38,095 nt of DNA from positions 1 to 38,095 of the forward strand of contig JYFJ02003746.1 of assembly GCA_000934665.2 (NCBI GenBank). The letters are read 5' to 3'. The notes beneath the pieces are model-generated. The model had not been told where the DNA came from. It saw nothing but the letters and a program-made list of their open reading frames with translations, and made no database searches. This DNA is from Catajapyx aquilonaris (taxonomy: Eukaryota). Shown here piece after piece: positions 2,982-28,892 of the stretch. Position 1 is the first letter of the stretch, and each line of letters starts with the position of its first letter. Position numbers and translations under genes: made by a program.

Positions 2982-3239
2982 ACTATGACAGAGAAGCAGA
3001 GGAAGAGCTTTCATGCGTTGGAAAAGAAGGACAAGGAAAAGCGGCCTCCCAGCAGCCGTTCATCAGCTTTTTCTTTGTTCTGCGATGATGAGCGGCCAAA
3101 GATCAAGGAAGCCAACCCGCAAATCAGCCAGAGAGACCTGGACTGGCAGCTGGAAATTCGGTGGAGGAAAACACCGTCCCAAGTCCGTAACAGCTACGAG
3201 ACAGTCGCTGAGACATACAACAACCTCCTGTACCAGAAG
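2982..3239 (+). CDS. Internal exon encoding a divergent HMGB/Dsp1-like HMG box (end of box A plus box B), 86 aa, phase 0-0
   Basis: Acceptor CCTCAG|ACT and donor AAG|GTAAAT. The translation TMTEKQRKSFHALEKKDK...SAFSLFCDDERPKIKEANPQ...RW...Y...YQK matches HMGB-family motifs (TMS.KEK..F...A..DK; SAFF.FC...RPKIK..NP). Confidence 0.8.
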
Positions 3240-4409
3240 GTAAATGATGCCAATTGGAAATAGGATGCCATTTTGAAAGGAACTTGTTTTCGCTAGATTT
3301 TTCTGATCCTTCAATACTGACAAGGGGCCTTTCCTGGGTGATAATACCAAGTGATGAATACTAAATGATGGGTTCTACTTTCTTGTACTGATGATTGATA
3401 GTACCATTGACTCCTGATACAACAGCCTCGTCTTTAACAGATACGAGGTTATAACATACTTGAAAGGCTGTTCCTGCATATTTCCATAAGGTCCTGCATA
3501 TTTTTACTCCAGATGTAGACAACTCATTTTCACCTCACCAAGGCTATGAAAGACTATTTCTTGGCTACTTGATGGGAAAATGTGATGCCTTTGATCATTA
3601 CCTGGTGTCACCTCGCCATGCTTAGGAGGACACTGTAAACTGGAGTGGGGGTGATTTTCCCATATGTCACTTTTTTTAAGCTTCGTACTCCCCAAGTTTT
3701 GCATCTCGAGGTTGAGACATGCATGTTCTCTGTTCAATTTGTGAGTCTTAATGAACTGCTTGCCTTGTGCTGGATCACACAGCTGACCTTGGTTCCTAGC
3801 CATGAATGTGCCACACTATACCTGAGTGGGACAGTTGGCAGTGAGGAGACATCTGGCCAAGATGCAGCAAGTTTAGGAGGCCCTGCTTTACATTTGCTGA
3901 AAGGGTCAAAATAATTCTTTATCTAGTATATTTTGCAACAAGGCAATGGCAGAATAAAATTACAGCTTTTCTATATCCTGCTTAATTTATGTGTGAGCTA
4001 ATTTTGTATTTTCATGGATGGTTTCATTAATCAGTATTGATTAGTGTGCATTAAAGGCATACGGTAGGTAGAAAACATTGTGTATTCGTTGCAAAAGTAG
4101 CGACTTGGCTGTAATATACCTCTGTTATTACGGGCTGATTTCCACTTTCCCTCAAAGTCTGTTACTTATATCCGGAGTCTACTGTATATGGGGCAATTCA
4201 GTAAAATCTTTTTGAAGGAAGAGTTTTAACGTTCACTCAGTGAAAATGTATTGGTTCCTAATACATGCTAACCGTATGTATAACTAAACATTACTGATAT
4301 TGACCTTTTCATGCTCTACCACAACCTCAGATGTCATTTACATCAATGTAGCCGGCATTTGCCCTTGCTCTTGTAAGTCAACATGAATTATTAGAAGCAT
4401 TGGTTGTTC

Positions 4410-4530
4410 TACGAGGGCTATTTTTTAATTGAGTTCCGATGAGCTGTGAATTTAAAAAACGAGAGTAATGAAAAATCTCTATATCTATAAATAAGTATGT
4501 TTGTGAGTTTGTGAGTTTGTTTGTCCCTTC
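4410..4530 (+). mobile_element. TE fragments: possible mariner-like TIR start, then a possible non-autonomous Helitron-like 5' end
   Basis: TACGAGGGCTATTTTTT at ~4410 and TCTATATCTATAAATAAG...(GTTTGTGA)n GTTTGTCC at ~4477-4527. Pattern recognition only. Confidence 0.35.
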
Positions 4531-4915
4531 TAGAAATCCAGGGGAAGGCCCCTACACCGCCTTAAATTAGCATATCAGGGGTTACATTTTCCAAGGAATC
4601 CAAGGCCGCATGTTTCAGCTTCCGAAAATGAACCTAACTCCCACAACACGCATATTCCAGAATCTTTTCACTTACTTGGTCCCCAACAATTAACTTACAT
4701 AAACATCAAATAACAATATGTCAAGTCACATTCCCATGGAAATGCCCTTATGCAACAATAGGCCTACCTATAGCAAATTAAAGCATTGGCGTAAATTCAA
4801 CGCATCCACCAATTACGCTAATTGGCCACCTCACGTGAGTTCGTATTGTATGGTCATTCCGGGATTTTGTTGGATTTGAAACTAGACTTACAGAAAAAAA
4901 TCAATACGAAAAATA

Positions 4916-5475
4916 CAGTAAAACTTCTATAAGTAGAACTTCCCTAAGTCGAAGTTCTCTATAAGTCGAAGAAAATGATGAGCTTGGTCCTTCCCAAATA
5001 AACTTCCCTAACTCGAATTTCTATAACTCGAAGTGCAGACAGGGCCTTGCAATGGGATATCAATTCATTTTCAGTCTTCCTAAGGTTGAAGTTCATGTTG
5101 GCGAGTAAGGAAAATTTTCTCACTTCCCAGCCGAAGGGTCGAGAGTAGGCCACATGTACAGAAAGGCTCAATTTCCTCATCTCCGTCTACTAGACGTAAC
5201 CAAAGAAGTGTTTGAATCGATTGTGAAAATTGAATTCTTGAATAAGAGTAGCCAAATGTAACTGAGATTTTTTTACAACAAAACAATATATTAGAAACAT
5301 TGTAAGTGTGACAATAATTTTAAAGTTTTGAACATCTTTCGCCGCTAGATATAAAGGTATAGGCTTCCTTATCGAGTTAGGTGCTTAAATAATTCCAAAC
5401 TTCTCTAACTCGAATCTTCTATAACTCGAAGTTTTTTCATGGTCCCATGGAGATTCGACTAAGGAAGTTTTACTG
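4916..5475 (+). mobile_element. Tc1/mariner-pogo type MITE, family 1, full copy
   Basis: TA|CAGTAAAACTTC...GAAGTTTTACTG|TA with internal TAAGTCGAA/TAACTCGAA repeats. Other copies are at 25274-25877 and 18329-18740. Confidence 0.9.
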
Positions 5476-6387
5476 TAATACAGGATTTACAAATAATACT
5501 CTGTGTGGAAAACAAAATTTCCCACCATGCATCTGTACATACATTTCTAAAGTTCTTCAGAGCAAACATATGGAACGAGGTGGGGGTGTGAAGTAGGGTT
5601 GTTATCATATTTTTCACAATATTCTATTTAAAAAGTTTATACTGTCATTTTCAAACTGGAGTTAATGTGAAACGGCGAAAAACGCAGTTCCGTAAACGGG
5701 TACCTGCTGTAGGGGCTCAATGGTTTTGGCGTGCCCAACATGACCATTGTAACTTAAAAGCATTAAGAACATCATACTTAGGAATATTTACTCATAGTTA
5801 ATTTAAAATCTCTAAACAGCTCATTTTGACGTTATCTAGGACCATTATCCGAGTATCCGTGTTTTCCAATTATCCAGCGACATCCATGCAGCCAGTAGCC
5901 CAGATATTTGGAAGTGCACTGTCTTGTATTGCTACATTAATAGATGCGGTAGTGCAAAAGTGAAAGTGTTGTAGATGAAGATGACAAGTTGTTTTTTTCA
6001 CAAGCACAATCCAGTACGCACGCACACTCGCCCAAGTCCATTTTTCTGGGAACATTGTTGCCACAGTTACTCCTCATGGCCCGAAGTCACAATGATAGCC
6101 TCTAAGGTGCGTTCCAGAGCCTTGGCAATGTCCCAAAGGCCGCCATATTGTTACCCCTTGAAGCTTAGTGTTGGAAACAAGTTCTGTGATCTATGTTGCA
6201 CACTTGGTTGTGCTCATTTAAAAATTCATCACAGGTGCAATGATTGCCACGGTGCTGAATTTCTGTTGATTTGCAAGTGTCACTACGTAAATTATGAACT
6301 ATAACTGATAAAAATTTAATGTGTCCTACAGAAGTATATCGGGGATGTGTCCATTAACCAAGCCAATTGCAATTTTTACACACACAG

Positions 6388-6413
6388 AGGAGTGCGAGGC
6401 TGGCCGGGAAGAT
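6388..6413 (+). pseudogene. Probably dead RRSxRL micro-exon copy (RSARLAGK)
   Basis: CACACAG|AGG AGT GCG AGG CTG. The homologous donor GTAAGC reads GCAAGC here, and the length (26 nt) is not a multiple of 3. Confidence 0.5.
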
Positions 6414-6641
6414 GCAAGCATGAAGTCTTATTCCTGTTCAGTTTATCTAAATGCCGGAATGGAGAAATTTTTTATTTATTATTAATTTATTCACCTTGGT
6501 GCACTCCCTGTAGGGTTTCTGGCACCAGCCTTATTGGAATCCCCCACAGTGCAGCTGCGGTGTGCAGATGTGAAACTTTTGTAACAATTCTTTATGTAGC
6601 TTAACATTAATGGAGGTTACCTTCTTCAATTGCAGTCACAG

Positions 6642-6743
6642 GCACCACCTGCACCACCAGCGCCAGCGCCAGCGCCACCACCTCCTCCACCTCCAGCTCC
6701 ACCTCTACCGGCAGCTCCACCTGCAGCTCTGCAGCCAGCAGCA
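6642..6743 (+). CDS. Pro/Ala-rich exon 1 (34 aa, phase 0-0)
   Basis: TCACAG|GCA...GCA|GTGAGT, 102 nt. The same splice context is present in five paralogs. Confidence 0.7.
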
Positions 6744-7220
6744 GTGAGTAAACATAAATTAACACAACCTTATACTTTATTTCTTGTACTGATTTTTGGT
6801 ATAGTTTATGGTAAGTGGGGAATACAACAGGATTAGTCAAAACAAATTGAGAATGATTTTTATTTGAGACAGGACTGGTTCTCCACTCTCGGAGAGGGGC
6901 ATCTTGTACAGTATGTCTTGGAGTATTAAAGCAACCAATTCCTGTTCAAATAATATTCTGCCATCCCGGGAGACGGTGAAACCCGAAGTAGACCGGGGTT
7001 GATATTACATTCTGATTTTCCAGTGAGGTACAATATTCAGGGTTGAAATGTCTGACATGAACAAACTTTTCAGGCATTCATTGGGTGTAGACATTACATA
7101 TGTAATTATTATTGGTGTTGGAACAGGTTGAGTGAGTGGCTAATTAGATTTTCATTTGCGTCATGTTCTAATGTGGTCTGGTCATGTCAAGATGTACATT
7201 TTAAAAACTCACTGTTCCAG

Positions 7221-7316
7221 GTCAACAAGGACCTAGTGTGGAAGAGGCTCCAGAGCCTGTTTCCAAAGCACTCAGCCCCCGCAGGCCCCCAGCCACCGCA
7301 GGGAAGCAGCGGCAAG
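7221..7316 (+). CDS. Candidate exon VNKDLVWKRLQSLFPKHSAPAGPQPPQGSSGK (32 aa, phase 0-0, GC donor)
   Basis: TGTTCCAG|GTC acceptor. AAG|GCAAGT fits the GC-AG donor consensus. It is a GC-rich island in AT-rich DNA. Confidence 0.55.
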
Positions 7317-7566
7317 GCAAGTGATTCTGAATCCAGAAAAAACAGTGAGGGCAGTGGCAAGGTTACCGTGGACTTCAGGGCTAGTGTCCAGGGAAATGGA
7401 AACTCATGATCATTGTTGAGTAGAAATTTCCAGAATAAAATGGCAGCAATGAAATGAAAAACTCATGGTACTAGGAATGGAAAAAGAACCATAAAACATA
7501 GCCCTGGAACTTATAGATTCTATTGAAAGGGATGGGATTGTTTTGACTGCATTGGCTACATAATTA

Positions 7567-7832: not shown

Positions 7833-7978
<146 letters not shown>

Positions 7979-8003
7979 ACCAAGCCAATTGCAATTTTTG
8001 CAG

Positions 8004-8039
8004 CCACTCAGAAGGAGTGAGAGGCTGTCACAGCAGAGG
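8004..8039 (+). CDS. Candidate basic micro-exon PLRRSERLSQQR
   Basis: TTTTTGCAG| acceptor. The only donor is the weak AGG|GTGACT, because the paralogous GTAAG reads GAAAG here. 36 nt. Confidence 0.45.
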
Positions 8040-8132
8040 GTGACTGGAAAGCATGAATTCTTATTCCTGTTCAGTTTATCTAAATGGCACTTTTTATCCA
8101 TCATTCTGTCCGATTTTATAGATCCCAAACTA

Positions 8133-8739
8133 CAGGGTGATCCAACTTTATCACCCCAACAGTTATTGTAAAAATCGTGTAAGCTACTACTTTTTAATCA
8201 GTTACTTGCTAAGAGTTACTTTCTCGAGTACGTGGAGTAGCACCTGCTGATGTTAGGTCCAATGCCCATGTACCAATTAATGACCTATTTATTGGCACAA
8301 CCGGGTCTGTCCGGTTCAATGAATTAGCCCTCTGATTGGCAGCTAGTGACCTCATCTGAATCCCTCCAGAGAACACCAAAATGGGCCCTTTTGAAGGCCA
8401 ACACATGAATCAGTTTGGAGATGAGGAAATAAAAGGGATGATGACATGCACATGGGCAACTTTCCACTTCAGGGTTGCAACGTTCGCATCCGACCTATTG
8501 CGATTGACCCATTTGGCCAGTCACAACCCCAGCCGGCACAGCGCCGCAGACGACCTGTTTCCCATGGAGGACCCTTTCTTCCCTCATTAATTTTATTGGT
8601 ACATGGACATTGGATCTAATATCAGCAGGTGCTATTCCAGATACTCGAGGAAGTAACTCTTAGCAAATAGCTGCTTAAGAAGAAGCAGCTTATGGGATTT
8701 TTCCAATAACTGTTGGAGCGATAAAGTTGGATCACCCTG
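8133..8739. mobile_element. Tc1/mariner-type MITE with ~150-bp inverted arms
   Basis: TA|CAGGGTGATCCAACTTTATC...GATAAAGTTGGATCACCCTG|TA. Confidence 0.88.
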
Positions 8740-9075
8740 TACAAAAACTATCACTTTGCTCACTATACCGTCATCCACACGACGGTATGGCGATGTCCCC
8801 GCGAGTTTATACAATGCCATTGTTTGGTGAACATGTGGGGGTGTGTCCACAGGGCAACGCACTGTGTACAGTAGCGATCTGGTAGTGTTTGAATTTCGCG
8901 GGCGGATGTGACGCCATGATTTGGCCCAAACTTTGGAGGCCTCGTGAGCCCTACATAATCGCAGAGACATATAATGGAAACTGATCTGAAATCCTCAAAA
9001 CAAGGGCTACTACTTAAGATATGAACATTAGGAATAGGCCATCTTGATTCGAGATGCCAGCTTTTTAATAACTTT

Positions 9076-9365
9076 TTTTTTTTTTTTTTTTTTTTGTTAC
9101 CCCGTGATAGAGCTCGTGGCCCTCTTAGGGGGGAAGGGGAAGTTCCCAAGGGAGGGCGCCGTGCGATAGCCATTTCTGACATTCTTTTAACACCAGGCCT
9201 TTTCTCCTGGCCCCGAGCAGAGAAGGGAGTGCAATTCTGCTCCGGCATGTCGGGTGAAAAGCGGAAAAAGACCCGGCCAAGCAGAGGTGACGGGGACGGG
9301 ATTTGAACCCCGGCCTCCCTCTTGGCTGGCCAGCGGCGTAACCGCTAGACCACCATGCCGCCCTG
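9076..9365 (-). mobile_element. Full-length tRNA-derived SINE with poly(A) tail and 16-bp TSD
   Basis: TSD GCTTTTTAATAACTTT at 9060-9075 and 9366-9381. Minus-strand A box TGGTCTAGCGG and B box GGTTCAAATCC, with a poly(T) tract on the + strand. Confidence 0.92.
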
Positions 9366-9528
9366 GCTTTTTAATAACTTTAAACAGCCATTATTGATCA
9401 GGAGAGACAAAATGGAATCATATGGAAATCTCAAACCAAGGGGAACGACTCGATAAATAAAAATTATTAGGCACCCGACAACTTATTACAGGTATTAGAA
9501 AGAGAAAAAAAAACATTGCGTCTAAGCC

Positions 9529-9669
9529 ATTGTTGATCAATTGTTGATGAACTAACAATTGATTTCATTACTAAAATAACATTGCTGATTGATTGTTGAT
9601 GCACTAACAATCGACCTGATTATTAACATTGTTGATCGATTGCTGATCGATTGTTGATGAACTAACAAT
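9529..9669. repeat. Degenerate tandem repeat (ATTGTTGATC / GATGAACTAACAAT units)
   Basis: The motif recurs directly in the sequence. Confidence 0.7.
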
Positions 9670-10783
9670 AAAATAATATGAGACAGCAAAATAATCGTGA
9701 ATTTGTGCTTTATCGTGTACGCTTGGGAATAATTTCCAATAACAATATCCAGGTATAACTTACTGAGAGACTCGTGAATATCACGTCGACTGATCCTGCT
9801 GGCTGATTCGATCATCTTGCGAGGCAATTATCCAGCCTGCCAGAAGATGCAATATGTTTTGATTGCTGCCAACCAACCACATTGTGCAAAGCCTTATACA
9901 TAAAGCCATACTTGAAGCTATAAACTCTCCTGAGGTCATCCTGGAAGCTGAGGACTCGTTGGACTGTCCCAGATCTATGCTCCAGTCAATAAGCTATACT
10001 CAAAAAGTACGAAGAGGATTGTTCTAATCTAATACGGCTGGTTTGGAAAAAAAAACACCATTACTATATTAAACTTGGCACAAAGATTATGTTAACAAGA
10101 AACATTGATGTTACTCTTCGGTGCAGTGGGTACCGTACTGAGTGTTATGTACGTACAACCCAGACACTCCAAAAAAAAATTAAAATCCATAAAAATTCAA
10201 CTTTCTTTCGGATTGGAATACGATTTAGGGCCTGTGAAGAGCAAATTTGAAGTTACAACAAAAGCATTCATCTAAGCTTATAGAAAACAGTTCCCTATAA
10301 CGATAGCTTATACGGCACCACAATTCACAAGAGTCACGGCTTGAGCTCAGACACTGCCCTAATCGACATCGGCTCATCACTTTTCTGTTGCGGCCAAACC
10401 TACGTAGCCTTGGCTCTTGTCACAACAATTGACGGAATCCATATAATCGACTTTGATCATACCCAGGTAAAAGCTAACCCAATAGAAACTCCTTACACTG
10501 GAATACAACAGACTCGGACATAATATTAGACAAATCACAAAGTAGCCCTCCTTATGTCACGGAAACAAGGTAGATGTGTATGATGGGAGAGTTGCTGGTT
10601 TGGGGTGTTGGAATAATGTTTGGAAGAGCATAGCATGGGCGGCCCTCTTACAAACATGTTAGGTGTGTCCTCTGACACTTTGAAAATAAAAACCTATATC
10701 AATTCCACACTTTATATCGTATTTTCCTGTGTACCGGAGAAAATATCATTCCTTATTTACTGCAACTGCACAAAAAGTCTTGA

Positions 10784-11527
10784 GATCTAACCAAAAACGG
10801 ACTCGTAAAAAAACCGCCGTCCGTAGCCACTCCGCCTAAAAAAGTTGTGAGATCATGGGTGGACACCAAGCCTCTTTGTGAGACTATAGATTAAGTCAAG
10901 TTACTTGGCTCACGATTGGAGACTATAGACTTACAACTCGTAGACTTGGCGCATGGTTCGAGACTATATAGACTAAGGTTGAGCCACTTGGTTCACCGGG
11001 CATGAAGAGCAATAGACGGCTTAATGATAAAATTTAGTAGTTTCTGATCAACCAATGACTGTTACACGCCTTCCACTGCTGTAATATCCAGACTACAATT
11101 CCTTAATTACCGTATACTCATGTAGTAACAAATTCCCCCTTCAAACCATACAGGGTGTTTCTCAACTCGCGTCCAAAACTTCTATGGTGAACTCCTGAGC
11201 ACCAGTGAATCGCTTCACCTGCTCTATGTAAAGTGATCCACTGGTGCACACGAGTTCAACCTCAAAGTTTTGGACGCGGGTTGTGAAACACCTTGTACCG
11301 GTATAATTCCCCGTGAGTCAAATGGCTCAACCTTAGTCTATATAGTCTCGAACCATGCGCCAAGTCTACGAGTTGTAAGTCTATAGTCTCCAATTGTGAG
11401 CCAAGTAACTTGACTTAATCTATAGTCTCACAAAGAAGCTTGGTGTCCACCCATGATCTCACAACTTTTTTAGGCGTAGTGGCTAAGGACTTGGCGGTTT
11501 TTTTACGAGTCCGTTTTTGGTTAGATC
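10784..11527. mobile_element. Foldback/MITE with ~200-bp inverted arms containing GAGACTATAGA sub-repeats
   Basis: 10784-10986 is the near-exact reverse complement of 11323-11527. Confidence 0.88.
11151..11295. mobile_element. Small palindromic Tc1/mariner-type MITE nested in 10784-11527
   Basis: TA|CAGGGTGTTTCTCAACTCGCGTCCAAAACTT...AAGTTTTGGACGCGGGTTGTGAAACACCTTG|TA. Confidence 0.8.
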
Positions 11528-12153
11528 CTATTTAATTCAGTTAAAATCATGCTGGTGAAATCTGCATACTTCTGCCATGAATGACCGAAAAGAACACTGA
11601 ATTAATTTCACACGTATGACCTCCAAAGCCCCTTTTCTCAAAACTGTTCTCATGCGGGTTGACGCATTATTGCATAACACCATCCAATTATCAAATGCTG
11701 TAGGTACCAGTTTTACATCGCACCATTTTACGTTGTTTTACGATAACGGTGGTTAGAAAATCACATTATAAAATTTTTAAACTGGAAAATTGTGAAAAAT
11801 ATGACGATAACAACACAATCTGAACATAAGCACAACACTTTGGAGTCCAAACGCACGACCATAAAATAATGCCATTTTTTGTCTTTCGTGGTGCCGTGTG
11901 GCAGGTTCTATCGATAAATACAGTACCGTATTGTTGGTCTCATCGGTACCCTGCGCAGTCTATTAAATACCCTACGTCTACTGCAGTTCTTGCCAAAAGA
12001 AGGGAAAAGAGGCCTCAGAACCAGATGACCCTTCACCTGGAACCTTAACCATTAAATGTGCATTATAAATGTTTGAAATAGTCGGCATTAAAAACTGCAA
12101 TTTAAGCACTGCATCAGGGAAATTTTTGGAAATCTTGGAACCCATCTTATTTA

Positions 12154-12300
12154 CCCGGGAACACCCCCTTCATATCGTGCAGAGTTCAGGGACCTCTGGC
12201 TTCGTCTCAGGTGGTATTTCCACAGACTAAACCACCCGGGGGAGTTCACTAAAAATGGCCACGGATAAGACATTGCACTGCACCTTGCACATCCGCACTC
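12154..12300 (+). mobile_element. SINE body fragment (same family as 101-450)
   Basis: Similar to the reverse complement of ~240-383 (CGTGCAGAGTT...CTCTGGCTTC...CCACCCGGGGGAGTTCAC...GACATTGCAC). Confidence 0.7.
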
Positions 12301-12946
12301 CTGTCATCCTGCCCGTGGGCCCGGGAGTTACATATAAAGGCTCCAATGTACTTAATAAATAAAGGTCCGTGCTGCATACCTCAGATGAGGTCAAGCACTA
12401 CCCCAGATTAATTTTGTCTCGTTTTACGCCTTTTCATTTTACGCCGCGTTTTGCAGGAACCAATTACCGGCGTAAAACGGGTACTACCTGTATCCTTATG
12501 GGGAGCCTTGGGAGCCCGTTCGTAAGTACAGATCACAGTAAATCATACTGCAATAAGTCAGTAGGCCATTATCAAAACCAGGCGACCTATTTCCGAACAC
12601 CAGGAAACGCGAATGTCTGATTTTGCGCTTTTTATTTACGACCCAGGGAAAAATTATTACCATGTTCATTGTATGCTTTGCCATGTCTCCTATCACCTAT
12701 CTAGAGCACGGAAATCATGATCCATAAACAAAATCACAATGATCAATTGGAAATTATGATAGCTTGATGGTTGTGAAATGGGCGAGAAAGATTTCCTATA
12801 CGGGAAGTACCCGCTTTACGCCGCTCCATTTTACGAGCAAAGGTTTGGCTTCTTATACAATAGTGGATGTCTTAATTTTCTATTTTCTTTATAGTTGTAT
12901 TCCCATAGCTCATAATCCTTTTAATACCATATATGACTTCCTGCAG

Positions 12947-13018
12947 GTGGTGACTGGAGTGAAGAGGAAGGTGCCCACCTCTTCGCCCACCTCTTCGCCG
13001 AAGCGGCTCCATATTCAG
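12947..13018 (+). CDS. NLS-like exon VVTGVKRKVPTSSPTSSPKRLHIQ (24 aa, phase 0-0)
   Basis: TTCCTGCAG|GTG...CAG|GTGATG, 72 nt. It is paralogous to 19157-19240 and shares flanks 12837-13367 / 19050-19589. Confidence 0.65.
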
Positions 13019-13427
13019 GTGATGCATGACATGCGCATTTCGATCTGTAATACTTGCTGCTATCTACTCAGATTCACCTTGGATTTGCATCATCAAGTGG
13101 GAGTTAAATAGTATTTCCACCCAACACATACCTATCAGTTGCACATAGCAGTACAAATTCACAATAATTTTGAAATCTCTTCACATTAATTTTATTTATA
13201 TTTTTTCCCAACCTCTTTGCGGAGCACAGTTTCAGAACTGCTGTATTAAAGAATCTTTAATATGTCCTTCACTTTTAATAACATATGTTCATTTATTGTG
13301 GTAAGGGGATTGAAATTAAAAGACCCTGTGCTTTGCAGAAGCAATATTTAGTTTTATAGGAATGGTGAGCACCTGCTCTCACAAGGGCACGGTACTTGCT
13401 GTAAGTTGAGAAGCTTATGTATATATA

Positions 13428-14141: not shown

Positions 14142-14256
14142 ATAGCAGAACTCTTTGGGTAACACCGATGCGATGTGCCATAACCTGGCAACAGCAGAGC
14201 CATCTAGCAACTAAAGTACGCCTCCTTGGAGATGCGCGGATAGTCAACAGCGGATT

Positions 14257-15630: not shown

Positions 15631-15702
15631 GTGAGTAAACATGAATTAACACAACCTTGGTTGCTCCCACGTGATCGTTTATGTAAACTTGTTCCCTCAG
15701 TA

Positions 15703-18315: not shown

Positions 18316-18328
18316 CATACATACATAC

Positions 18329-18740
18329 CATAAAACTTCTATGCGTCGAACTTCTGTAAGTCGAAGTTCTCCATAAGTCGAAGAAAATGATGAGCTTGGT
18401 TGGTCACAATGTAAAATAATAGGAAATATAAACTTCCCTAACTCGAAGTTCTCCATAACTCGAAGTGCAGGCAGGGCCTTACGATGGGATATCAATGCAT
18501 TTTCAGTCTCCCTAAGTCCAAGTTCATGTTGGCGAGTACGGAAAATTTTCTCCTTTCCCAGCCGAAGGGTCGAGAGTGGGCCACATGTACAGAAAGGCTC
18601 AATTTCCTGATCTCCGCCTACCAGACGCACCGAAAGAAGTGTCTGACTCGATTGTGACAATTGAATCCTAGAATCTAAGAGTAGTCAAATGTCCATAAAG
18701 GATATTTTTTTACAACAAAACTATGATGAACATGTAAATG
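18329..18740 (+). mobile_element. MITE family 1, 3'-truncated copy
   Basis: Colinear with 4916-5310 and 25274-25705. Confidence 0.85.
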
Positions 18741-19156
18741 TATGAAAGTTCAAAGAAAATAATGCATTCATGGAAACTTCCAGACTGTGGACTTGGGTAG
18801 ACACTGTATATTATCTGATCATTGGTGATGAGTTCCTTTGTGGCTCTAATGTTCCTTATACCAGGGGTCGCAGTATTCAGATCAAATGGTCTAATTTTCT
18901 TTCCAAAGTGAGCCATGGAGTGCCAAGGCTAAATCCAGTAATTAAAAATTAAGCACTGCAAGCAAGCAATTTGCACTCCAGATGTAAGTCTAGAGAGTGA
19001 AAACTTTGCATGTGAACAAAAAGTTTTAAGATTTGACCCTGTTCTGCAAAGCAAAGGTTTGGCTTTTTATACGATGGTGGATGTCTTCTCTATTTTCTTT
19101 ATAGCTGTATTCCCATAGCTCATAATCATTTTAATACCATATATGACTTCCTGCAG

Positions 19157-19240
19157 GTGGAGAATGGCAGCCGAAAAAGGAAGCACCCGGGGTGGAAACC
19201 TTGGTGGCCCTCCCCCCCCTCGAAGAGGCGTCGCACGGAG
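19157..19240 (+). CDS. Bipartite-NLS-like exon VENGSRKRKHPGWKPWWPSPPSKRRRTE (28 aa, phase 0-0)
   Basis: TTCCTGCAG|GTG...GAG|GTAATG, 84 nt, paralog of 12947-13018. Confidence 0.65.
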
Positions 19241-20025
19241 GTAATGCATGACATGCGCATTTCGATCTGTAATAATTGCAATCTACTCAGATTCACCTTG
19301 GGTTCGCAGCATCAAGTGGGAGTTAAATAATATTTCCACACAACACATAGGCCTACCTATCAGTTACACATAGCAGCACAAATTCACAATAATTTTGAGA
19401 TCTCGTCACATAAATTTTATTTACATCATTTTTTCCAACCTCTTTGCGGAGCACAGTTTCAGAACTGCTGTATTAAAGAATCTTTAATATGCCCTTCAAT
19501 TTTAATAACATATGTTCATTTATTGTTGTAAGGGGATTGAAATTAAAAGCCCCTGTACTTTGCAGAAGCAATAGTTTTATAGGAATGGTTGGAGAGAAAA
19601 TGTTAGATTCAATAATTTTTGCCACATTAAATTTAAAGTGGTATGATTGCCGAGCTAGCTACACTCTCATGTTATCTAAGTCTATGTTCATTTAAGTTTT
19701 CTGGCCGTTCTGGCCGATTTCAATGCAACTCTTTGCTGGATTCTGCATTGCCCCGTTTTGTATCCGATAACTATGGTTGTGTAACTCAGAAGTGTGTGTA
19801 ATATGAAACTGTAGAGCATTATAACTAGTCTATTATTTGTTCATATCATTGGCATGGAAGAGAAAAATCTAAGAGGTCCCATTTTGGCAGTAGGATTTGG
19901 TTAGGGTTGCTGGTTGGATGAACATGTGTTAGGGTTTTCTGCAGATTTAGCCGCAGTTTACATGGTCATTAACTTAGTATTGGTAAGTGTTTGAGAATCA
20001 TCCATATATGGGATGCATCCATTAA

Positions 20026-20494: not shown

Positions 20495-20522
20495 TTAACC
20501 AAGCCAATTGCAATTTTTGCAG

Positions 20523-20558
20523 CCCATCAGAAGGAGTGAGAGGCCGTCACACCAGAGG
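20523..20558 (+). CDS. Candidate basic micro-exon PIRRSERPSHQR
   Basis: TTTTTGCAG| acceptor and weak AGG|GTGACT donor. It is the closest paralog of 8004-8039. Confidence 0.45.
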
Positions 20559-20775
20559 GTGACTGGAAAGGATGAATTCTTATTCCTGTTCAGTTTATCT
20601 ATATGCCACAATGGAGAAAATAATTCACCTTGGTCCACTCCCTGTACGGTTTCTGGCACCAGCCTTATCACAATCTCCCTCAGTGCAGCTGCGGCTTGGA
20701 GATGTGAATAATTTGTGACCATTCTTTATATAGCTTAACATTAATCAAGTTTACCTTCTTCCATTGCATTCACAG

Positions 20776-20964
20776 GCACCACCTCCAGCGCCTTCACGGC
20801 CAGCGCCAGTGCCACCTGCACCTCCAGCGCCACCTGCACCTCCAGCGCCACCTGCACCTCCAGCGCCACCTGCACCTCCAGCGCCACCTGCATCTCCAGC
20901 GCCAGCGCCACCTGCACCTCTAGCGCCAGCGCCACCACCACCAGGACCTGCACCGGCCCCAGCA
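20776..20964 (+). CDS. Pro/Ala-rich exon 3 (63 aa, (PPA)n minisatellite, phase 0-0)
   Basis: TTCACAG|GCA...GCA|GTGAGT, 189 nt. Confidence 0.7.
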
Positions 20965-21057
20965 GTGAGTAAACATAAATTAACACAACCTTATTGGTTC
21001 TACTTTATTTCTTATAAGGTGAAATGGGGTAAGTGCATACACAGGGTAAGTGCATAC

Positions 21058-21223: not shown

Positions 21224-21227
21224 CGTG

Positions 21228-21345: not shown

Positions 21346-21856
21346 AGACAATCACTGCACTGGAGGTCCATGCAGCCAATAGCCCAGATATTTGGGAGTA
21401 CACTTGTATTTCTACTTTTATACACTAGATGCAGTACTGCTAAAGTAAAAGTGTTGTAGATGAAGATGAAGGGTTTGTTTTTTCACAAGCACAATCGAGT
21501 ACGCACCCACACTCGCCTAATTCCATTTTTCTGGCAACAGTGTTGCCACAGTTACTCCTCAAGGCCCAAAGTCACACCGATAGCCTCTAAGGTGCGTTCC
21601 AGAGCCTTGGCAATGTCCCAAATTGTTACCCCCTGAAGCCTAGTGTTGGAAACAAGTTGTGTGATCTGTGTTGCACACTTGGTTGCACTCATTTAAAAAT
21701 TCATCACAGGTGCAATGATTGCCACGGTGCTGAATTTCTGTTGATTTGCAAGTGTCACTACGTAAATTATGAAATATAACTGATAAAAATTTAATGTGTC
21801 CTACAGAATTATATCTGGGATTCATCCATTAACCAAGCCAATTGCAATTTTTACAG

Positions 21857-21907
21857 CGACTGAGGAGGAGTCAAAGACTGTTTGCCAAGCAGAAGGCCAG
21901 TGTTCAG
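21857..21907 (+). CDS. Basic micro-exon RLRRSQRLFAKQKASVQ (17 aa, phase 0-0)
   Basis: Strong sites TTTTTACAG| and CAG|GTAAGC, 51 nt. Confidence 0.72.
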
Positions 21908-22121
21908 GTAAGCATCAAGTCTTACTCCTGTTCAGTTTATATAAATGCCACAGCGGAGAAAATAATTTATTCACCGTGTTCCACTCCCTGTACGGTTTCT
22001 GGCACCAGCCTTATCACAATCTCCCCCAGTGCAGCTGTGGCTTGCAGCTGTGAATATTTTCTGACCATTCTTTATATAGCTTAACATTAATCAAGTTTAC
22101 CTTCTTCCATTGCATTCACAG

Positions 22122-22316
22122 GCACCACCTCCAGCGCCTTCACGGCCAGCGCCAGTGCCACCTGCACCTCCAGCGCCACCTGCACCTCCAGCGCCACCTG
22201 CACCTCCAGCGCCACCTGCACCTCCAGCGCCCCCACCCCCTCCCCCTTCCCCTCCCCCTTCCCCTCCCCCTCCACCACCTCCACCGGGACCTCCAGCTCC
22301 TCAGCCACCACCACCA
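22122..22316 (+). CDS. Pro/Ala-rich exon 4 (65 aa, phase 0-0)
   Basis: TTCACAG|GCA...CCA|GTGAGT, 195 nt. Confidence 0.7.
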
Positions 22317-23019
22317 GTGAGTATACATAAATTAACACAGCCTTCTACTTTATTTCTTGTACTGATTTTTGGTAGTTTATGGTAAGTGGGGCAATACAAC
22401 AACAAATTGAGAATGATTCCAAAATTCGGATGGTTCACTGGCTTTCTAGCCCTGTGTCATAGAAAAATACAAGCATAGCGAGAGTTTTTCTTGTAATATA
22501 TTAAAATTATTGTTACCAAACAACACCTGACAAAGATTTCGCAACATACCATTGTCATTTACTCTAAATTAAAATAATCGAAGGCCCTCTGATGCCATTT
22601 CTTATTGGAAAAATTTGAAAGCTCTCAAAAACCTACATTATAATTTTTTTTTTTTAATTGGTTTAGTTTAACCCTGGTAAGCTTCACACCTTTACATGGG
22701 GGAGTCTAAACTACTGTCACTTTACATATGACATGCATGTGTGTATGATGATTGTGTAGGTCAATTTAAAAACTGGGTATCAGTTTTTCATCTTGCCTTC
22801 ATTATTTGGAACAATTGCATGTGAGTCTTACGGGGCTACCCACAGGCTGTAGGTGCTCAATGGTTTTGCCATGCCCAATATGACGATCACAACTTAAAAG
22901 CATTCTAAGAACATCATACTTAGGAATACTTACTAGTAGTTAATTTAAAACCTCTAAACAGCTCATTTTTAAGGGTATCTAGGACCATTATCCGAATATC
23001 CGTGTTTTCCAATTATCCA

Positions 23020-23568
23020 GCCTTTGGATGAGAGTGGCAAGCCGTGCGTGCCCTCCCATGTGGCTCCAGGAAAAGCCATCCCAGACAGAGAGAGTTGGTC
23101 ACACTGACTAAGCCAGAAGTGAGGACACTTGATGTCACTGTTGGTAATTGCCGTGACCGGAATTCACCTTCACCCTCACGAGCTTATTCCGAAATTGTTG
23201 GCACCATATCGCCACACGAATTGCTCAGACATCTGTGGGCCATACCCTCCACTAGTCGGCGATGAATGTCGCATGTCAAATGTTGACCACTGGAACTGAA
23301 CATCTGACCACACTTATGCATTAGTCCATGTGACCAACCCTTTCTGTCTGGCCTGACTTTTCCTGGCAGAATGTGGGTGAGCACGCTCGACTCGCCACTC
23401 AGTCTCGTCCGATGGCTGCCGCGCCTGTGCATAAGCTGCAAGAAGGTGCCTATCCATCTTATAAAGTACTGGAAGGATGGACGTACATGCCCATGCTCGG
23501 CTTTGTCCTGTGCATTGCATGGCGTCAAAACTGTAGCACCTCTTAGCTTATTTTCCGACTAGCCCTTG
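23020..23568 (+). repeat. ~550-bp segment duplicated at 26770-27298 (origin unknown)
   Basis: CCTTTGGA.GAGAGTGGCAAGCCGTG...CTCTTAGCTTATTTT.CGACTAG is colinear and highly similar in both copies. Confidence 0.9.
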
Positions 23569-23837
23569 TGTGAGGTACTGAATATGTTGGCAGCAATGCT
23601 GGTTGATTGTAAAGAGGGTTGTTATGGTTTGAGAGAGGGATTATCGGAAGTGGGAGTGAAGATCGGTGTGAGTGAAAGAAGGAGAGGTGGACTGCGAAGT
23701 GGATTTCAGCGGCAATAAACCTATATTACATGTGTGTCAAGTCTTGGTATCTTGGGGGAATTACGGAACAGCTAAAGAGTGACTCCTGCCGTCCGCCCAC
23801 TCAGAAGAGTCCGGACCAATACAGAAGCTCCGTCACA
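23569..23837 (+). mobile_element. Solo LTR (269 bp)
   Basis: TGTGAGG...CGTCACA termini, a 4-bp TSD CTTG and an internal AATAAA. The element is absent from the paralogous site at ~27295. Confidence 0.8.
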
Positions 23838-23869: not shown

Positions 23870-24705
23870 CTCCCGTATCGCCCATACCTGAAGAGCTGGA
23901 GGGATGGTGCCACTGAGGACACATAGCAGGTGGCTCAGGGTAGTCTTGTACGACCTGGTGGCTGCTAGCAGGAAGGGCAGGAGGGCAGACTGAAGATTGG
24001 TCCTAATTGCTTTGATCTTGGTCCGATGGCCCCAAACTTCCGCCCCATAGGAGCAGTGGTAGAATTGCCAACGATAGGATGCGGAGTTCTAGGTGCCAAG
24101 CCCCATCTCTGTCCGGCAACGCTCCAAAGACGAGGAGATAGACTTTAAAGGGGTGTTAAGGGCTGACCAGCCAGTGCGGCTCTACAGCCAGACGAGGAGA
24201 TACACGGCGCACCTTGGCCGCCATCCGCTTTACGTGGGAAAACCAGGATAGTTTTGCGTCCAGATAAAAGCTGAGGACTCTCACGGAGTGGCACAGAGGG
24301 ATGCGTTCATCCAGAAAGAAAAGCCTTGGCTTGCCGGTCACCTTTCGGTGGGCCAGGAAAAGAGCCTTGGTCTTCCTCTCGTTATACTCCAGTCCTAGCG
24401 ACGACGCCCAATCTTGTAGTGTGAGTTCTAGTCTCTGCCAAGTCTCCTGGATCCTCACGGCGGAAGGCCCCGATATCAAGAGGACCTGATCTTCCGCATA
24501 TGCTTGTGAGTGGACACGGTCCAGGCCCTGTCTGGAACCAGCTGTCCATAACTATATTCCACAACATGAGGCCCAAACTGGACCCCTGCGGGCAGCCCCT
24601 CTCCATGATGTGATTACCCCAGTCACAGATGAGTTGGAGGAGGTGGAGGAACCCCTCCACCATGCGTTGCAGTCCTCCAGGACATCTTGCGCGAAGCATA
24701 GCACG
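23870..24705 (-). pseudogene. LINE reverse transcriptase fragment (R1-like)
   Basis: Motifs RGCPQGSSLGLMLWNIVMD, QAYAED (a YADD variant), GLEYNERKT and YLDAKLSWFSHVK, with frameshifts. Confidence 0.82.
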
Positions 24706-25273
24706 CAGATGTTAATCTCTCATGGGGGACGCTCTTCCACATACTGCTTTTTCACAAGGAAACTCAGTACCTGAAACTTGTGTGCCATTTACCTCATTTT
24801 TACGGCGTATAGGACCATTATTGAGTGACTGTGTTTTCCAATAATCCAGCGACATGCATGCAGCCAGTAGCCCAGATAATTGGGAGTTCACATGTATTTC
24901 TACATTAATAGATGCAGTACTGCAAAAGTAAAAGTGTTGTAGATGAAGATGAAGAGTTTTTTTTTCACAAGCACAATCGAGTACGCACCCACACGCGCCC
25001 AAGTCCATTTTTCTGGCAACAGTGTTGCCACAGTTACTCCTCAGGGCCCAAAGTCACACTGACAGACTCTAAGGTGCCTACCAGAGCCTTGGCAATGTCC
25101 CAAAGGCCGCCACATTTTTACCCCCTTAAGCTTATAGTGTTGGACACAAGTTGTGCGATCTGTGTTGCACACTTGGTTGTGCTCATTTAAAAAAAATTCA
25201 TCACAGGTGCAATGATTGCCACGGTGCTGAATTTCTGTTGATTTGCAAGTGTCACTACGTAAATTATGAACTA

Positions 25274-25877
25274 CAGTAAAACTTCTATAAGTCGAACTTC
25301 CCTAAGTCGAAGTTCTCTATAAGTCGAAGAAAATGATGAGCTTGGTTGGTCACAATGTAAAATGAAAATAGGTAATAAACTTCCCTAACTCGAATTTCTA
25401 TAACTCGAAGTTCTCCATAACTCGAAGTGCAGGCAGGGCCTTCTCATGGTATACCAATGCATTTTCAGTCTCCCTAAGTCGAAGTGTATGTTGGCCAGTA
25501 CGGACAATTTTCTCATTCCCCAGCCGAAGGGTCGAGAGTAGGCCACATGTACAGAAAGGCTCAATTTCCTTATCTCTGTCTACCAGACATACCGGAAGAA
25601 GTGTTTGACTCAATTGCGACAATTGAATCCTTGAATCTTAGAGTAGGCAAACGTCCATCATAAAGGAGAGTTTTTAACAACAAAACAATGAGGAACATTG
25701 TAAGTGTGATAGTGAAGTTATTTTTAAGTTTTGAACACTTTTCGTCGCTGGATATAAAGGTAGGCTTCCTTATAGAGTTATGTGCTTTACGAAATCCAAA
25801 CTTCTCTAACTCGAATCTTATATAACTCGAAGTTTTTTCCCGGTCCCATGGAGATTCGACTTATAGAAGTTTTACTG
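25274..25877 (+). mobile_element. MITE family 1, full copy
   Basis: TA|CAGTAAAACTTCTATAAGTCGAA...TTCGACTTATAGAAGTTTTACTG|TA. The empty site ATGAACTATAACTG is present in the paralog at ~6294. Confidence 0.93.
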
Positions 25878-25965
25878 TATAACTGATAAAAATTTTATAT
25901 GTCCTACAGAAGTATATCTGGGATTCGTCCATTAACCAAGCCAATTGCAATTTTTACACCCACAG

Positions 25966-26007
25966 AGAAGGAGTCAGAGGCTCGCTGCAAGGCGAAGCAC
26001 TCAAGAG
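25966..26007 (+). CDS. Basic micro-exon RRSQRLAARRSTQE (14 aa, phase 0-0)
   Basis: ACACCCACAG|AGA...GAG|GTAAGA, 42 nt. Confidence 0.7.
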
Positions 26008-26218
26008 GTAAGAATGAAGTCTTTTTATTCCTGTTCAGTTTATCTAAATGCCACAATGGAGAAATTAATTTATTCACCTTGGTGCACTCCCTGAACGGTT
26101 TCTGGCACCAGCCTTATCGCAATCTCCCACAATGCAGCTGCGGCTTGCAGATGTGAATCTTTTGTGACCATTCTTTATGTAGCTTAACATTAATCAAGTT
26201 TACCTTCTTCCATTGCAG

Positions 26219-26338
26219 GCACCTCCACTGCAGGCACCTCCACCGCCCCCACCCCCTTCCCCTCCACCACCTCCATCACCTCCACCACCTCCACCACCTC
26301 CACCAGCTCCAGGTCCTCAGGCACCACCACCACGACAA
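26219..26338 (+). CDS. Pro-rich exon 5 (40 aa, phase 0-0)
   Basis: CCATTGCAG|GCA...CAA|GTGAGT, 120 nt. Confidence 0.7.
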
Positions 26339-27473
26339 GTGAGTAAACATAAATTAACACAACCTTCTACTTTATTTCTTGTACTGATTTTTGGTAGTTT
26401 ATGGTAAGTGGGGCAATAAAACAGGACTAGTCAAGACAAATTGAGAATGATTCCAATTCCTGTTCAAATAATATTCCGCAATCCCCGGCAACAGTGAAAC
26501 CAGAAGTAGACCGGGATTCATATTCCATTCCGATTTTCCAGTGAGGTATACAATAATATTCAGGGTTGAGGTTTTGCTTCCATTTGAAGAAAACAGCCAT
26601 GGAGGAGTATGACGTGCTAAGATTATGAAGAGCAGTTACCAGTCACCTTGTTAGTCCACAAGACGTTGCAACTCTTTACTTACTAGTTGTTTATTTAAAA
26701 CCTCTAAACTGCTCATTTTTACGGTATCTAGGACCATTATCAGAGTATCCGTGTTTTCCAATTATCTAACCTTTGGACGAGAGTGGCAAGCCGTGTGTGC
26801 CCTCCCATGTGCCTCCAGGAAAAGCCATGCCAGACAGAGAGAGTTGGTCACACGGACTAAGCCAGAAGTGAGGACACTTGAGGACACTGTCGGTAATTGC
26901 CGTGACCGGAATTCACCTTCACCCTCGTGAGCTTATTCAGAAATTGTTGGCACCATATCGCCGCACGAATTGGTTAGACATGACATCTGTGGGCCATACC
27001 CTCCACTAGTCGGCGATGAATGTTGCATGTCAAATGTTGACCACTGGAACTGAATATCTGCCCACACTTCTGCATTAGTCCATGTGACCAACCTTTTCTG
27101 TCTGGCCTGACTTTTCCTGGCGGAATGTGGGTGGGCATGCTCGGCTCTCCACTCTGTCTCGTCCGATGGCTGCCGCGCCTGCGCATAAGCTGTAAGAAGG
27201 TGCCTATCCATCTTATAAAGTACCGGAAGGATTGTCCTGTCCATAGCATGGCATCAAAACTGTAGCACCTCTTAGCTTATTTTTCGACTAGTCCTCGTAT
27301 GTGGTTGTTTTCTGATGGTCCTGCCAAACTTCTCTCGCACAATGCATCAAGAACAGTCATAATGAATCAAGCCAGACCATGTAAAACAGGATCCCCTATA
27401 AGGCTATGGGTCTATCATTGGGTTATGATTATAACCATATTTATGATCCCAGAACTTCTTTTACACTTCTTTT

Positions 27474-27739
27474 CAAGGGGGTAGTTACTTACCCTCACTG
27501 GTGTACACCCTCACTGGTGAGCCGTGGAGAGCCGAGGAGAGCAGACGGAAAACTACGTCATATTGACGCCATATCATCAACCCCGCGGGTTGTGACGTAG
27601 TTGCCTCTCCTTGGCTCTCTGCGGCTCTCAGAGGCATCGGTGAGCCGATAAGACCGTGGGTGAGCCTGCTGGTGAGCCGCGGAGAGCCGCAGCTCAAGAG
27701 AGCTGGTGTACACTTTTTTGAGGAGTGACTACCCCCTTG
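27474..27739. mobile_element. MITE with short TIRs and internal GAGCCG repeats
   Basis: CAAGGGGGTAGTTACT...AGTGACTACCCCCTTG. Confidence 0.65.
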
Positions 27740-27894
27740 CTCCTTATAGTCTGTAAGAGTTGATAATTGAGCAAAATATGTAAGAGCCATTCCTTGAAAT
27801 TAAAGCAAATCTTATTGAAAGTTATAATATTGTTTACACTGTAAAATTTTTTGAATACCAGGTATTAACAGTCTCATTTAAATAATTGTTACAG

Positions 27895-27936
27895 GGCTTG
27901 AGGAGGAGCCGGAGGAGCCAATGTGGGGTGGCGAGG
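27895..27936 (+). CDS. Candidate 42-nt exon (phase 0: GLRRSRRSQCGVAR; phase 1: LEEEPEEPMWGGE)
   Basis: TTGTTACAG| and AGG|GTAAGT are strong sites. The reading frame is ambiguous. Confidence 0.6.
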
Positions 27937-28832
27937 GTAAGTGTACAGTCCCTTATTATTTGTATTGTGAATGTATATGAGTGCAAGCTCTTTGTAAGGT
28001 TCTGCATATCCCCATTTTGCATCTAGGTACCATGGCAGTAACTTTTCTAAATGTGTGTAATATCAAAGGGTAGGGCATACCTACCTTTTCTTATGTCGTT
28101 GGCTTACAATAGATATCCAAACAGCACAATTTTGGCAGCATGAGTTATTTACATCACATAAGGTCTGTTGCCTTCTGCACAATATGTTCCATGGATAGGG
28201 GTGACTTGGCAGCATTCCAGGCATACTGCTCATACAAAAGGGATGTTTTTCTGAGAGTGAGCACATATGAATACAAAAAAATGACCTCTTTCCATTTCAT
28301 GCTTGCTGGAAAGTCATCGAGGCCATTTTTCACCTCTCCTGATGCATTACTTTCACACCTAGAGTCACTTGTTGTTGTCATATTCAAACTATGCATTTCT
28401 GATGTAATGCTCAGCACTCAGCTAGAGAGAGGTGTTGTTGACCTAAAAGTGCAGTGGGCCAATGTAATTCCCTGTGGAACAAACTAGCCAAGCTGTATGG
28501 TAACCTTCACAGACAGTGACACTTTTGTTACTTGCTAAATCATATGTTATCACTTATCACATTAGTTATAATTGCATGAGCTATACATAAAAATTGCTTT
28601 CCACTGAAACTCTTTGCCTCGGCAGCAATGTTTCTAAGCAGTTTGTTAGGTATTGCCACTATACAGACGATATTATCCATTTCATGCATTATGACAAGTT
28701 GCTAGTCATGATGCAACTTAAATAAACTTTCACTGGAGTGAAGCCTGATATTTTGGATTAGGATGATAAAGTTAGGCTGAACTGAAATTTATTTTAGCTT
28801 ACATGAATAATCGTGTATTCTCATTTTCGTAG

Positions 28833-28892
28833 CTGAAGATGCACTGGGGCCCTTCACAGGAGTATGGGGAGACGAGCCCTATAAATCCCTAT
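28833..28892 (+). CDS. Candidate 60-nt exon (phase 0: LKMHWGPSQEYGETSPINPY; phase 1: EDALGPFTGVWGDEPYKSL)
   Basis: CTCATTTTCGTAG| and |GTGAGT, in a GC-richer island. The reading frame is ambiguous. Confidence 0.5.

Follow-up and report, generated by a model that had tools for sequence, protein, structure and literature searches.

A candidate modular gene in Catajapyx aquilonaris predicted to encode a chromatin protein with an HMG box and repeated HMGN-like motifs

Contig JYFJ02003746.1 of the Catajapyx aquilonaris genome assembly (GCA_000934665.2) carries 15 short islands on its plus strand, between positions 2982 and 28892, which the original prediction had read as the exons of one modular gene. 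This locus raises the question of whether these islands are real exons, whether they belong to a single gene, and what sort of protein they could encode. The stretch analyzed, 38,095 nucleotides (nt) in length, is referred to here as the window, and all coordinates are positions within it. Our best reading, to which we assign a probability of roughly 0.6, is a real multi-exon gene on the plus strand encoding a lineage-restricted and very basic chromatin protein, in which an HMG box is joined to five HMGN-like anchors, Pro-rich spacers, and exons resembling nuclear localization signals (NLS), and which has been shaped by diversifying selection.

Recomputation reproduced the coordinates of all 15 islands. 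AG precedes each of them, and GT follows in 14 cases and GC in one (at 7316); all lengths are divisible by 3, and phase 0 is free of stops throughout, giving a total of 1503 nt, or 501 codons. It is also true, as had been pointed out, that paralogous exons differ in length by multiples of 3, but this is a trivial consequence of all lengths being divisible by 3. Pyrimidine-rich tracts lead up to YAG acceptors in 15/15 islands and are matched by donors such as gtgagt, gtaagt, and gcaagt; scored with a donor matrix against 2128 plus-strand GT sites, all 15 donors lie at or above the 95.3rd percentile. The exons have a GC content of 63.5% in a window of about 43%. Since every exon is phase 0-0, module copies stay in frame. 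A gene on the minus strand was ruled out, because only the plus strand carries the HMG box and the splice-like signals. Searches of the window for Rfam families and for tRNA genes returned 0 matches each.

The first island (2982-3239, plus strand) is an exon holding a complete HMGB-type HMG box, and its donor, AAG/gtaaat, falls in the 98th percentile. Its translation matched the Pfam family HMG_box (PF00505) with an E-value of 1.4e-9 and 38.7 bits, above the gathering cut-off of 25.4, and the alignment spans residues 28-78, covering profile positions 6-56 out of 69. An AlphaFold2 model built from a 25-row alignment reached a predicted local distance difference test score (pLDDT) of 83, with three predicted helices (residues 29-44, 50-63, and 66-85). 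When this model was compared to the PDB with Foldseek, all the matches listed (ranks up to 50) were HMG boxes, HMGB1 being the best with a query TM-score (TMq) of 0.70; the E-values among the matches listed were all at least 0.0099, as expected because the domain is so short. In a phmmer search of the PDB, box B of HMGB1 was the best match (E 8.8e-10), followed by box B of HMGB2 and HMGB3. Together, the Pfam match above the gathering score, the three-helix model, and the proximity to HMGB1 box B in the PDB confirm that the HMG box is genuine. Helix 1 opens with Ser-Ala-Phe, a start that is typical of non-sequence-specific HMG boxes. The box is the only one in the window, since the matches with E < 1e-3 among those listed from a tblastn search with 150 HMG proteins all fall at approximately 2930-3260. 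An HMGB1 retropseudogene was considered and ruled out, based on the 30-35% identity to box B, an open reading frame (ORF) lacking box A and the acidic tail, and clean splice-like ends.

Five mini-exons carry a short Arg-Ser motif, named RRS here. RRS mini-exon 1 (PLRRSERLSQQR; 8004-8039) bears an HMGN-like motif and lies in a segment, 7978-8090, that matches 20497-20609 at 93.8%. Mini-exons 2 (PIRRSERPSHQR; 20523-20558) and 4 (RRSQRLAARRSTQE; 25966-26007) are AG/GT islands aligned with their paralogues. The donor of mini-exon 3 (RLRRSQRLFAKQKASVQ; 21857-21907) is CAG/gtaagc, in the top percentile, and that of mini-exon 5 (GLRRSRRSQCGVAR; 27895-27936) is AGG/gtaagt, in the 99.7th percentile. 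The last of these is an older paralogue; in pairwise comparisons with module copies B2, B4, and B5, the start of the motif is kept and the flanks are barely alignable. The motifs read RRSERL, RRSERP, RRSQRL (twice), and RRSRRS, so that the RRSxRL repeats previously described held up in part: R-R-S-x-R is present in 5/5 exons, but RRSxRL in 3/5, the exceptions being RRSERP and RRSRRS. The alignment of the modules and their translation also disclosed a degenerate sixth copy, absent from the original prediction, that reads RSARLAGK (6388-6413, plus strand, 26 nt) and has no GT donor (AT/gcaagc); this copy is probably dead or skipped.

Over the five copies, the codons of the motif residues R, R, S, and R vary by synonymous changes alone (AGA/AGG and AGT/AGC), and purifying selection thus acts on the R-R-S-x-R core while the neighboring codons change. 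The exon lengths (36, 36, 51, 42, and 42 nt) move in steps of 3n, whereas the gaps in the intron (7, 3, 4, and 6 nt) show no such constraint. The pattern RRS.R occurs five times on the plus strand, always within the listed exons, against a chance expectation of about 0.02 in 501 residues by our own arithmetic from composition (R 41/501, S 40/501). As the five copies derive from one origin, the weight of this observation rests on their conservation and not on their count.

The motif can be placed beside proteins known to bind the nucleosome. The available excerpts of PMC12487698 give RRSARLSA as the HMGN motif and PPRRSSRLT as that of Dsup, and report from cryo-electron microscopy that the RRSAR arginines touch the acidic patch formed by H2A residues E56, E61, D90, and E92 and H2B residue E113. 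According to the same excerpts, phosphorylation of the serine lowers binding in earlier work cited there, modeling of phospho-S24 predicts repulsion from the patch, and AlphaFold 3 is poor at modeling the contact between motif and patch (PMC12487698). For yeast Dot5, whose motif is RRSARIAT, the portion of PMC13347269 available describes the three arginines as essential and a second DNA-binding region as acting in synergy with them. In these sources, as far as the excerpts go, HMGN-like motif proteins have Arg-Arg-x-x-Arg with Ser at position 3 and a second DNA-binding element, and both features are found here, in the motif and the HMG box.

Self-BLAST of the window and alignments of the modules disclosed how the exons are related, and they bear out the proposal that the gene grew by duplication of exon modules: tandem copies of exon-carrying modules are present, all in plus orientation. 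The B module consists of an RRS mini-exon, an intron of approximately 215 nt, and a Pro-rich exon, with copies at 6300-6858, 20495-21016, 21829-22361, and 25932-26452 and two partial, exon-centered copies of the same type at 7978-8090 and 15401-15658; the segment 6300-6858 matches 25878-26452 at 80%. In the partial copy at 7978-8090, the upstream part is replaced by an (AAT) microsatellite (7833-7978; 48.7 copies, 97% matches) that stops 25 nt short of the acceptor of exon 8004-8039. The A module comprises an NLS-like exon and the sequence on either side of it (12836-13366 and 19050-19589). Alignment of its copies 2 and 3 defined two basic exons on the plus strand, 12947-13018 (...KRK...PKR...) and 19157-19240 (RKRK...KRRR), whose paired basic clusters (KRK...KR and RKRK...KRRR) seem to resemble bipartite nuclear localization signals. 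The intron upstream of the A-type exons recurs a third time, before the HMG exon (2576-2981, plus strand): 2576-2978 matches 18742-19152, upstream of exon 19157, at 90.8% over 411 nt, and 2876-2978 matches 12836-12942, the last ~100 nt alone upstream of exon 12947, at 86%. This paralogous similarity stops at the acceptor of the HMG exon.

Five plus-strand islands are Pro-rich spacers. The spacer of B module copy 1 (6642-6743; 102 nt, Pro/Ala-rich, AG/GT boundaries, donor gtgagt) is open in 3/3 frames, its frame being taken from its neighbors alone. Exon 15511-15630 (donor CCG/gtgagt, 99.9th percentile) is a diverged B-type copy without an RRS partner, and the intron upstream of it can still be traced by self-BLAST (15401-15499 to 26113-26214, 84%). 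Two further spacers contain an 18-nt repeat detected by Tandem Repeats Finder: the Pro/Ala-rich exon 20776-20964 has 5.5 copies encoding APPAPP (20806-20904, period 18, 97% matches), and exon 22122-22316 has 4.4 copies (22152-22231, 98% matches). The fifth, 26219-26338, has the donor CAA/gtgagt (99th percentile). Two unique exons complete the set. Exon 7221-7316 (VNKDLVWKRLQSLF...), with the GC donor AAG/gcaagt in a top-percentile context and an ORF that continues beyond this donor (7056-7409), and exon 28833-28892 (LKMHWGPSQEYGETSPINPY) have neither a paralogue in the self-comparison of the window nor a Pfam match; their support as exons is weaker and comes from splice-like signals. Among the nine exons of at least 20 residues other than exon 1, Pfam identified 0 families.

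Other repeats are interspersed with the modules. A segment termed Y, of approximately 480 nt, is present at 5820-6301, 21367-21776, and 24793-25273. The X repeat (~400-600 nt) occurs in same-strand copies at 4911-5477, 18325-18741, and 25269-25879 that are 81-86% identical; it contains tandem units of 15-17 nt (TCTATAAGTCGAAGTTC) and lies in introns of the proposed gene at varied positions relative to the modules, one copy being inserted between Y and B. The W repeat (~650 nt, 88.5%) follows a B module at both 22927-23576 and 26677-27305, and has a conserved minus-strand ORF (...FQYFIRWIGTFLQLM.RRGSHRTR...) without a Pfam match; the first ~90 nt of the repeat also recur at 5785-5874, where the Y segment starts.

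Comparison of the paralogous modules revealed that their introns are 91-94% identical and their exon bodies 58-67%. Between A module copies 2 and 3, the flanks agree at 421/448 positions (94%) and the exon at 42/72 (58%), with a Fisher p of 4e-14 and a Jukes-Cantor distance ratio of 9.7. The intron shared by copies B3, B4, and B5 reaches 91-94% identity, compared to 60-67% for their RRS exons, which corresponds to ratios of 6.0-6.6 (p 2e-6 to 1e-4); the youngest pair, B2 and B3, displayed no significant contrast (89% vs. 94%, p 0.45). Identity falls a few bases or less from the acceptor and recovers at the donor. In seven long paralogous pairs, low-identity stretches lie on the RRS and Pro exons; others were found at the ends of pairs, at one intronic indel, and in one short stretch near the end of the B pair. 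The W pair and two X pairs have one low-identity stretch each, those of X covering the tandem repeats, and the Y and A-upstream pairs have 0.

Outside the motif core, divergence of the exon bodies thus runs at 6-10 times that of the introns beside them. As exons cannot outpace introns under neutral decay, selection 'sees' these segments. The pattern points to diversifying selection, possibly together with gene conversion that homogenizes the introns while the diversity of the exons is kept. What goes beyond chance at this locus is the HMG_box match in island 1, the donor and acceptor scores, the exon GC content, and the coincidence of the divergence islands with exons. With splice signals on the one hand and a divergence contrast bounded by splice sites on the other, the islands likely behave as real exons.

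Several points weigh against our reading. The donor scores depend on approximate consensus frequencies in the matrix, and the splice sites had earlier been picked by eye. Being AG/GT-bounded, 3n in length, and open is not by itself a rare property: a scan in which islands needed a donor in the top 5%, a YAG acceptor preceded by at least 58% pyrimidines, and a length of 36-300 nt that is divisible by 3 and open in phase 0 returned 29 rows on the plus strand (13/15 islands, nine alternative-boundary variants of them, and seven unrelated rows with six donors) and 13 rows on the minus strand. The Pro-rich islands (n = 5) are open in two or three of three frames, and an open frame therefore carries no information for them. 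Alignments of exons of 36-84 nt at ~60% identity are uncertain, and gene conversion of the introns could yield part of the contrast without positive selection. Both ends of the gene are candidates: the start is an ATG at 2985, codon 2 of exon 1, with A at -3, and the terminal exon a weak one at 29404-29439 (plus strand; YAG acceptor, then the phase-0 ORF CGYWKLLPKND to a stop), one of seven formal candidates in the scan, with AATAAA at 29448, beginning 9 nt past the stop. RRSxRL is present in three motifs of five next to a degenerate sixth copy. Moreover, Pfam searches of the five RRS exons, read through to 20-21 residues with a maximum E-value of 10, matched 0 families, HMG14_17 (PF01101) included, although fragments this short are a weak test. 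The homologue searches, too, found no orthologue and no annotated protein. A word-index search with exon 1 gave 43 candidates, none of which scored, and one for close homologues of ORF 2973-3263 gave no candidate. Exhaustive phmmer gave 707 matches to exon 1, none with E <= 1e-30, the best ~34% identical and all generic HMG boxes (the five retrieved are multi-box HMG proteins), and a metagenome scan with exon 1 found six loci, five of them 30-36% identical over at least 55 residues and one 52% over 30. The two word-index searches and the phmmer search, blank or distant in outcome, fit the lineage-specific status previously proposed, although the species could just be unsampled.

The explanation that survives best beside ours accepts the gene and questions the motif: R-R-S-x-R(L) might not bind the acidic patch at all, and could instead be a basophilic kinase site (R-R-x-S or R-R-S), a 14-3-3 site, or a nuclear or nucleolar signal, with the Pro exons acting as ligands of SH3, WW, or profilin type. 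Short arginine-serine motifs serve many uses, and the absence of an HMG14_17 match, for which reason we do not class the protein as an HMGN, agrees with such a role. Position 4 is E, Q, or R here, compared to A or S in the proven motifs of the excerpts, and an acidic E beside an anchor arginine might weaken binding to the patch. Nevertheless, the three arginines and the serine have the exact spacing of patch-binding motifs from three unrelated proteins, as these are given in the available texts, and the motif residues are under purifying selection amid changing codons. A DNA-binding domain is present, as those texts describe for Dot5 and Dsup. The functions need not be exclusive either, given that phosphorylation of HMGN S24 is reported there to cut binding. 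We regard this alternative as possible, if doubtful.

Alternatively, the locus may be an unexpressed, decaying remnant, left by a modular gene that once functioned or by segmental duplicates without a gene, with open frames and splice-like ends that are leftovers enriched by selection by eye. The blank or distant homologue searches, the tentative start and stop, the background islands of the same formal kind, and the Pro exons open in several frames would all agree with this idea, as would the visibly degenerate copy at 6388-6413 and the change from L to P in one motif. However, neutral decay predicts equal divergence of exons and introns, whereas here the exons diverge 6-10 times more, within limits that coincide with the splice sites. 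The 259 non-Pro codons contain no stop or frameshift despite ~40% divergence between copies, the codon changes in the motif are solely synonymous, and the HMG box is still predicted by AlphaFold2 to fold confidently. A remnant is, for these reasons, an unlikely account of the locus.

A third explanation divides the islands between two or more genes or transcripts, for example an HMG-box gene from 2982 to ~8039 and a repeat-protein gene beginning at ~12947 or 19157. The 400 nt upstream of the HMG exon that recur upstream of exon 19157 could mark the starts of repeated units, transposon fragments lie in the introns, which reach lengths of ~5 kb, and the exons are linked by features of the sequence and not by junction evidence. 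On the other side, the window contains a single HMG box (among the tblastn matches listed), all exons share strand and phase with no internal start or terminal exon seen between them, and RRS and Pro modules occur on either side of the proposed split (8004 vs. 20523, 93.8%). Such a division seems quite improbable. It is more improbable by far that the A and B modules belong to the interior of a transposable element with captured exon fragments, its copies being insertions and not exons of one gene: three B units do directly adjoin the same Y segment, and X and W are interleaved with the modules, but five B-type and three A-type copies form a local cluster in one orientation, the partial copies at 7978-8090 and 15401-15658 are centered on exons, the Y, X, and W copies lack splice-bounded divergence islands like those of the exons, and no transposase or terminal-repeat structure flanks the modules.

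Returning to a single multi-exon gene, the predicted product would have at least ~500 residues. Pro accounts for 171 of 501 residues (34%), Arg and Lys together for 65, and Asp and Glu for 26, with an isoelectric point (pI) of ~11.3. An N-terminal HMG box would be followed by alternating Pro/Ala-rich spacers of 34-65 residues, the five RRS mini-exons of 12-17 residues, and the two NLS-like exons. The original prediction of a nuclear protein remains plausible, as the HMG box, the basic NLS-like exons, and the pI of 11.3 give the product the appearance of a nuclear, chromatin-bound protein. From the observed HMG box, splice-like boundaries, module duplication, contrast between exons and introns, and conservation of the motif, we infer a single mRNA, nuclear localization, nucleosome binding, and a selective cause of the fast exon change.

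In the mechanism that we propose, the HMG box would bind and bend DNA without sequence specificity, and each RRSxR(L) motif would use its arginines as anchors inserted in the acidic patch of H2A-H2B, in the way that the excerpts describe for HMGN2, Dsup, and Dot5. The polyproline spacers would keep the anchors apart so that one molecule could engage several nucleosome faces together, and the serine of the motif could serve as a phospho-switch, as described for HMGN in the available text. The gene itself would have grown by tandem duplication of modules of 0.1-1 kb. More speculatively, the product could be a lineage-restricted chromatin protein whose exons have been pushed apart in an arms race with foes such as selfish DNA, viruses, or meiotic drivers, themselves directed at the acidic patch, with alternative splicing of the phase-symmetric exons providing isoforms of varied anchor number and spacing; we offer this only as a tentative idea. 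Architectural proteins of the nucleus do not usually show a 6-10-fold excess of exon change between copies in one gene, and the pattern suggests a chromatin-centered genetic conflict.

If these predictions are true, the product would be the first multivalent HMGN-motif protein known from nature, and a toxin-like evolution with conserved introns and hypervariable exons would have occurred within a single nuclear gene. The gene would offer a natural case of several anchors combined with a classical DNA-bending domain, and hence a handle on multivalent patch binding in chromatin organization. A literature search turned up no account of a protein that combines an HMG box with HMGN-like motifs; among the matches listed, the HMGN-like motif literature covered Dsup, Dot5, and HMGN. 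The available part of one such report regards the HMGN/Dsup motif as a hint at 'an untapped realm of proteins' on the nucleosome acidic patch (PMC12487698). In terms of method, divergence islands between paralogous modules could be a way to spot real exons in an unannotated genome without RNA.

The remainder of the window contains several other elements. A decayed non-LTR (long terminal repeat) retrotransposon occupies 29615-31329 on the plus strand as three overlapping ORFs in different frames. Within it, 29615-30466 encodes a reverse transcriptase of the long interspersed nuclear element (LINE) type (RVT_1, E 1e-36), whose best relatives are at most 45% identical, the named ones coming from insects, a springtail, a scorpion, and lizards. 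More reverse transcriptase-like pieces lie at 24156-24711 (minus strand), and LINE-like ORFs at 1075-1943 (plus strand). Two inverted-repeat pairs in the long intron 8039-12947, 10784-11003/11306-11527 (95%) and 8131-8280/8592-8741 (86.7%), may be hairpin-forming transposon remnants. A large near-perfect palindrome spans 35330-36564, with arms that include 35385-35641 and 36252-36508 (257 nt, 96% complementary) and other arm pieces at 94-95%. The same ORF of ~100 residues (RGRPSDGSLLPAYTVSAG...), without a Pfam match, is present in each arm, and one arm end has a further copy at 38002-38095. The observed/expected CpG ratio, 0.60 for the window and thus unlike a mammalian value, rises to 0.9-1.0, with 51-52% GC, at 14001-14400, 33201-33600, 35401-35800, and 36201-36600.

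Comparison with known systems places the predicted protein between families. In both sequence and fold, the box in exon 1 comes nearest to box B of HMGB1, HMGB2, and HMGB3 (30-35% identity, TMq 0.6-0.7), from which it differs in the alignment by a 4-residue insertion ahead of helix 1. HMGB proteins have two boxes, and the product here has one (among the tblastn matches listed); the acidic tail is absent (D+E 26/501, pI 11.3), and the canonical layout of HMGB1-4, two boxes and a tail, does not occur within the window. The whole box also lies in a single phase 0-0 exon, and the remainder of the protein is unrelated to HMGB.

As regards gene structure, titin PEVK, TCOF1/treacle, and the salivary proline-rich proteins are modular genes of repeated symmetric exons, and the likeness lies in the in-frame duplication of short, phase-symmetric, low-complexity exons; to our knowledge, none of them pairs an HMG box with HMGN-like motifs. 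In snake-venom PLA2, three-finger toxins, conotoxins, and primate NPIP/morpheus, exons evolve faster than introns. The locus resembles these families in having introns ~92-94% identical and coding exons far more diverged, and it differs in that its paralogues are exons in one gene, not gene copies. The predicted product also differs from the toxins in being a nuclear chromatin protein and not a secreted one.

The arginine spacing of R-R-S-x-R-L is that of RRSARLSA, RRSSRLTS, and RRSARIAT in HMGN, Dsup, and Dot5, as quoted in the excerpts above. The invariant HMGN octamer RRSARLSA is complete in 0/5 RRS exons, the degenerate copy reading RSARLAGK, and position 4 holds E, Q, or R in place of the A or S given in those excerpts. 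Five copies and one probably dead copy are present here, compared to one in each of those proteins. The predicted protein further differs from HMGN, Dsup, and Dot5 in its Pro-rich spacers, in having no HMG14_17 match, and in using an HMG box as the DNA-binding part. Like Dot5 and Dsup, as the available texts present them, it would pair the motif with a separate DNA-binding part, here in the form of that HMG box.

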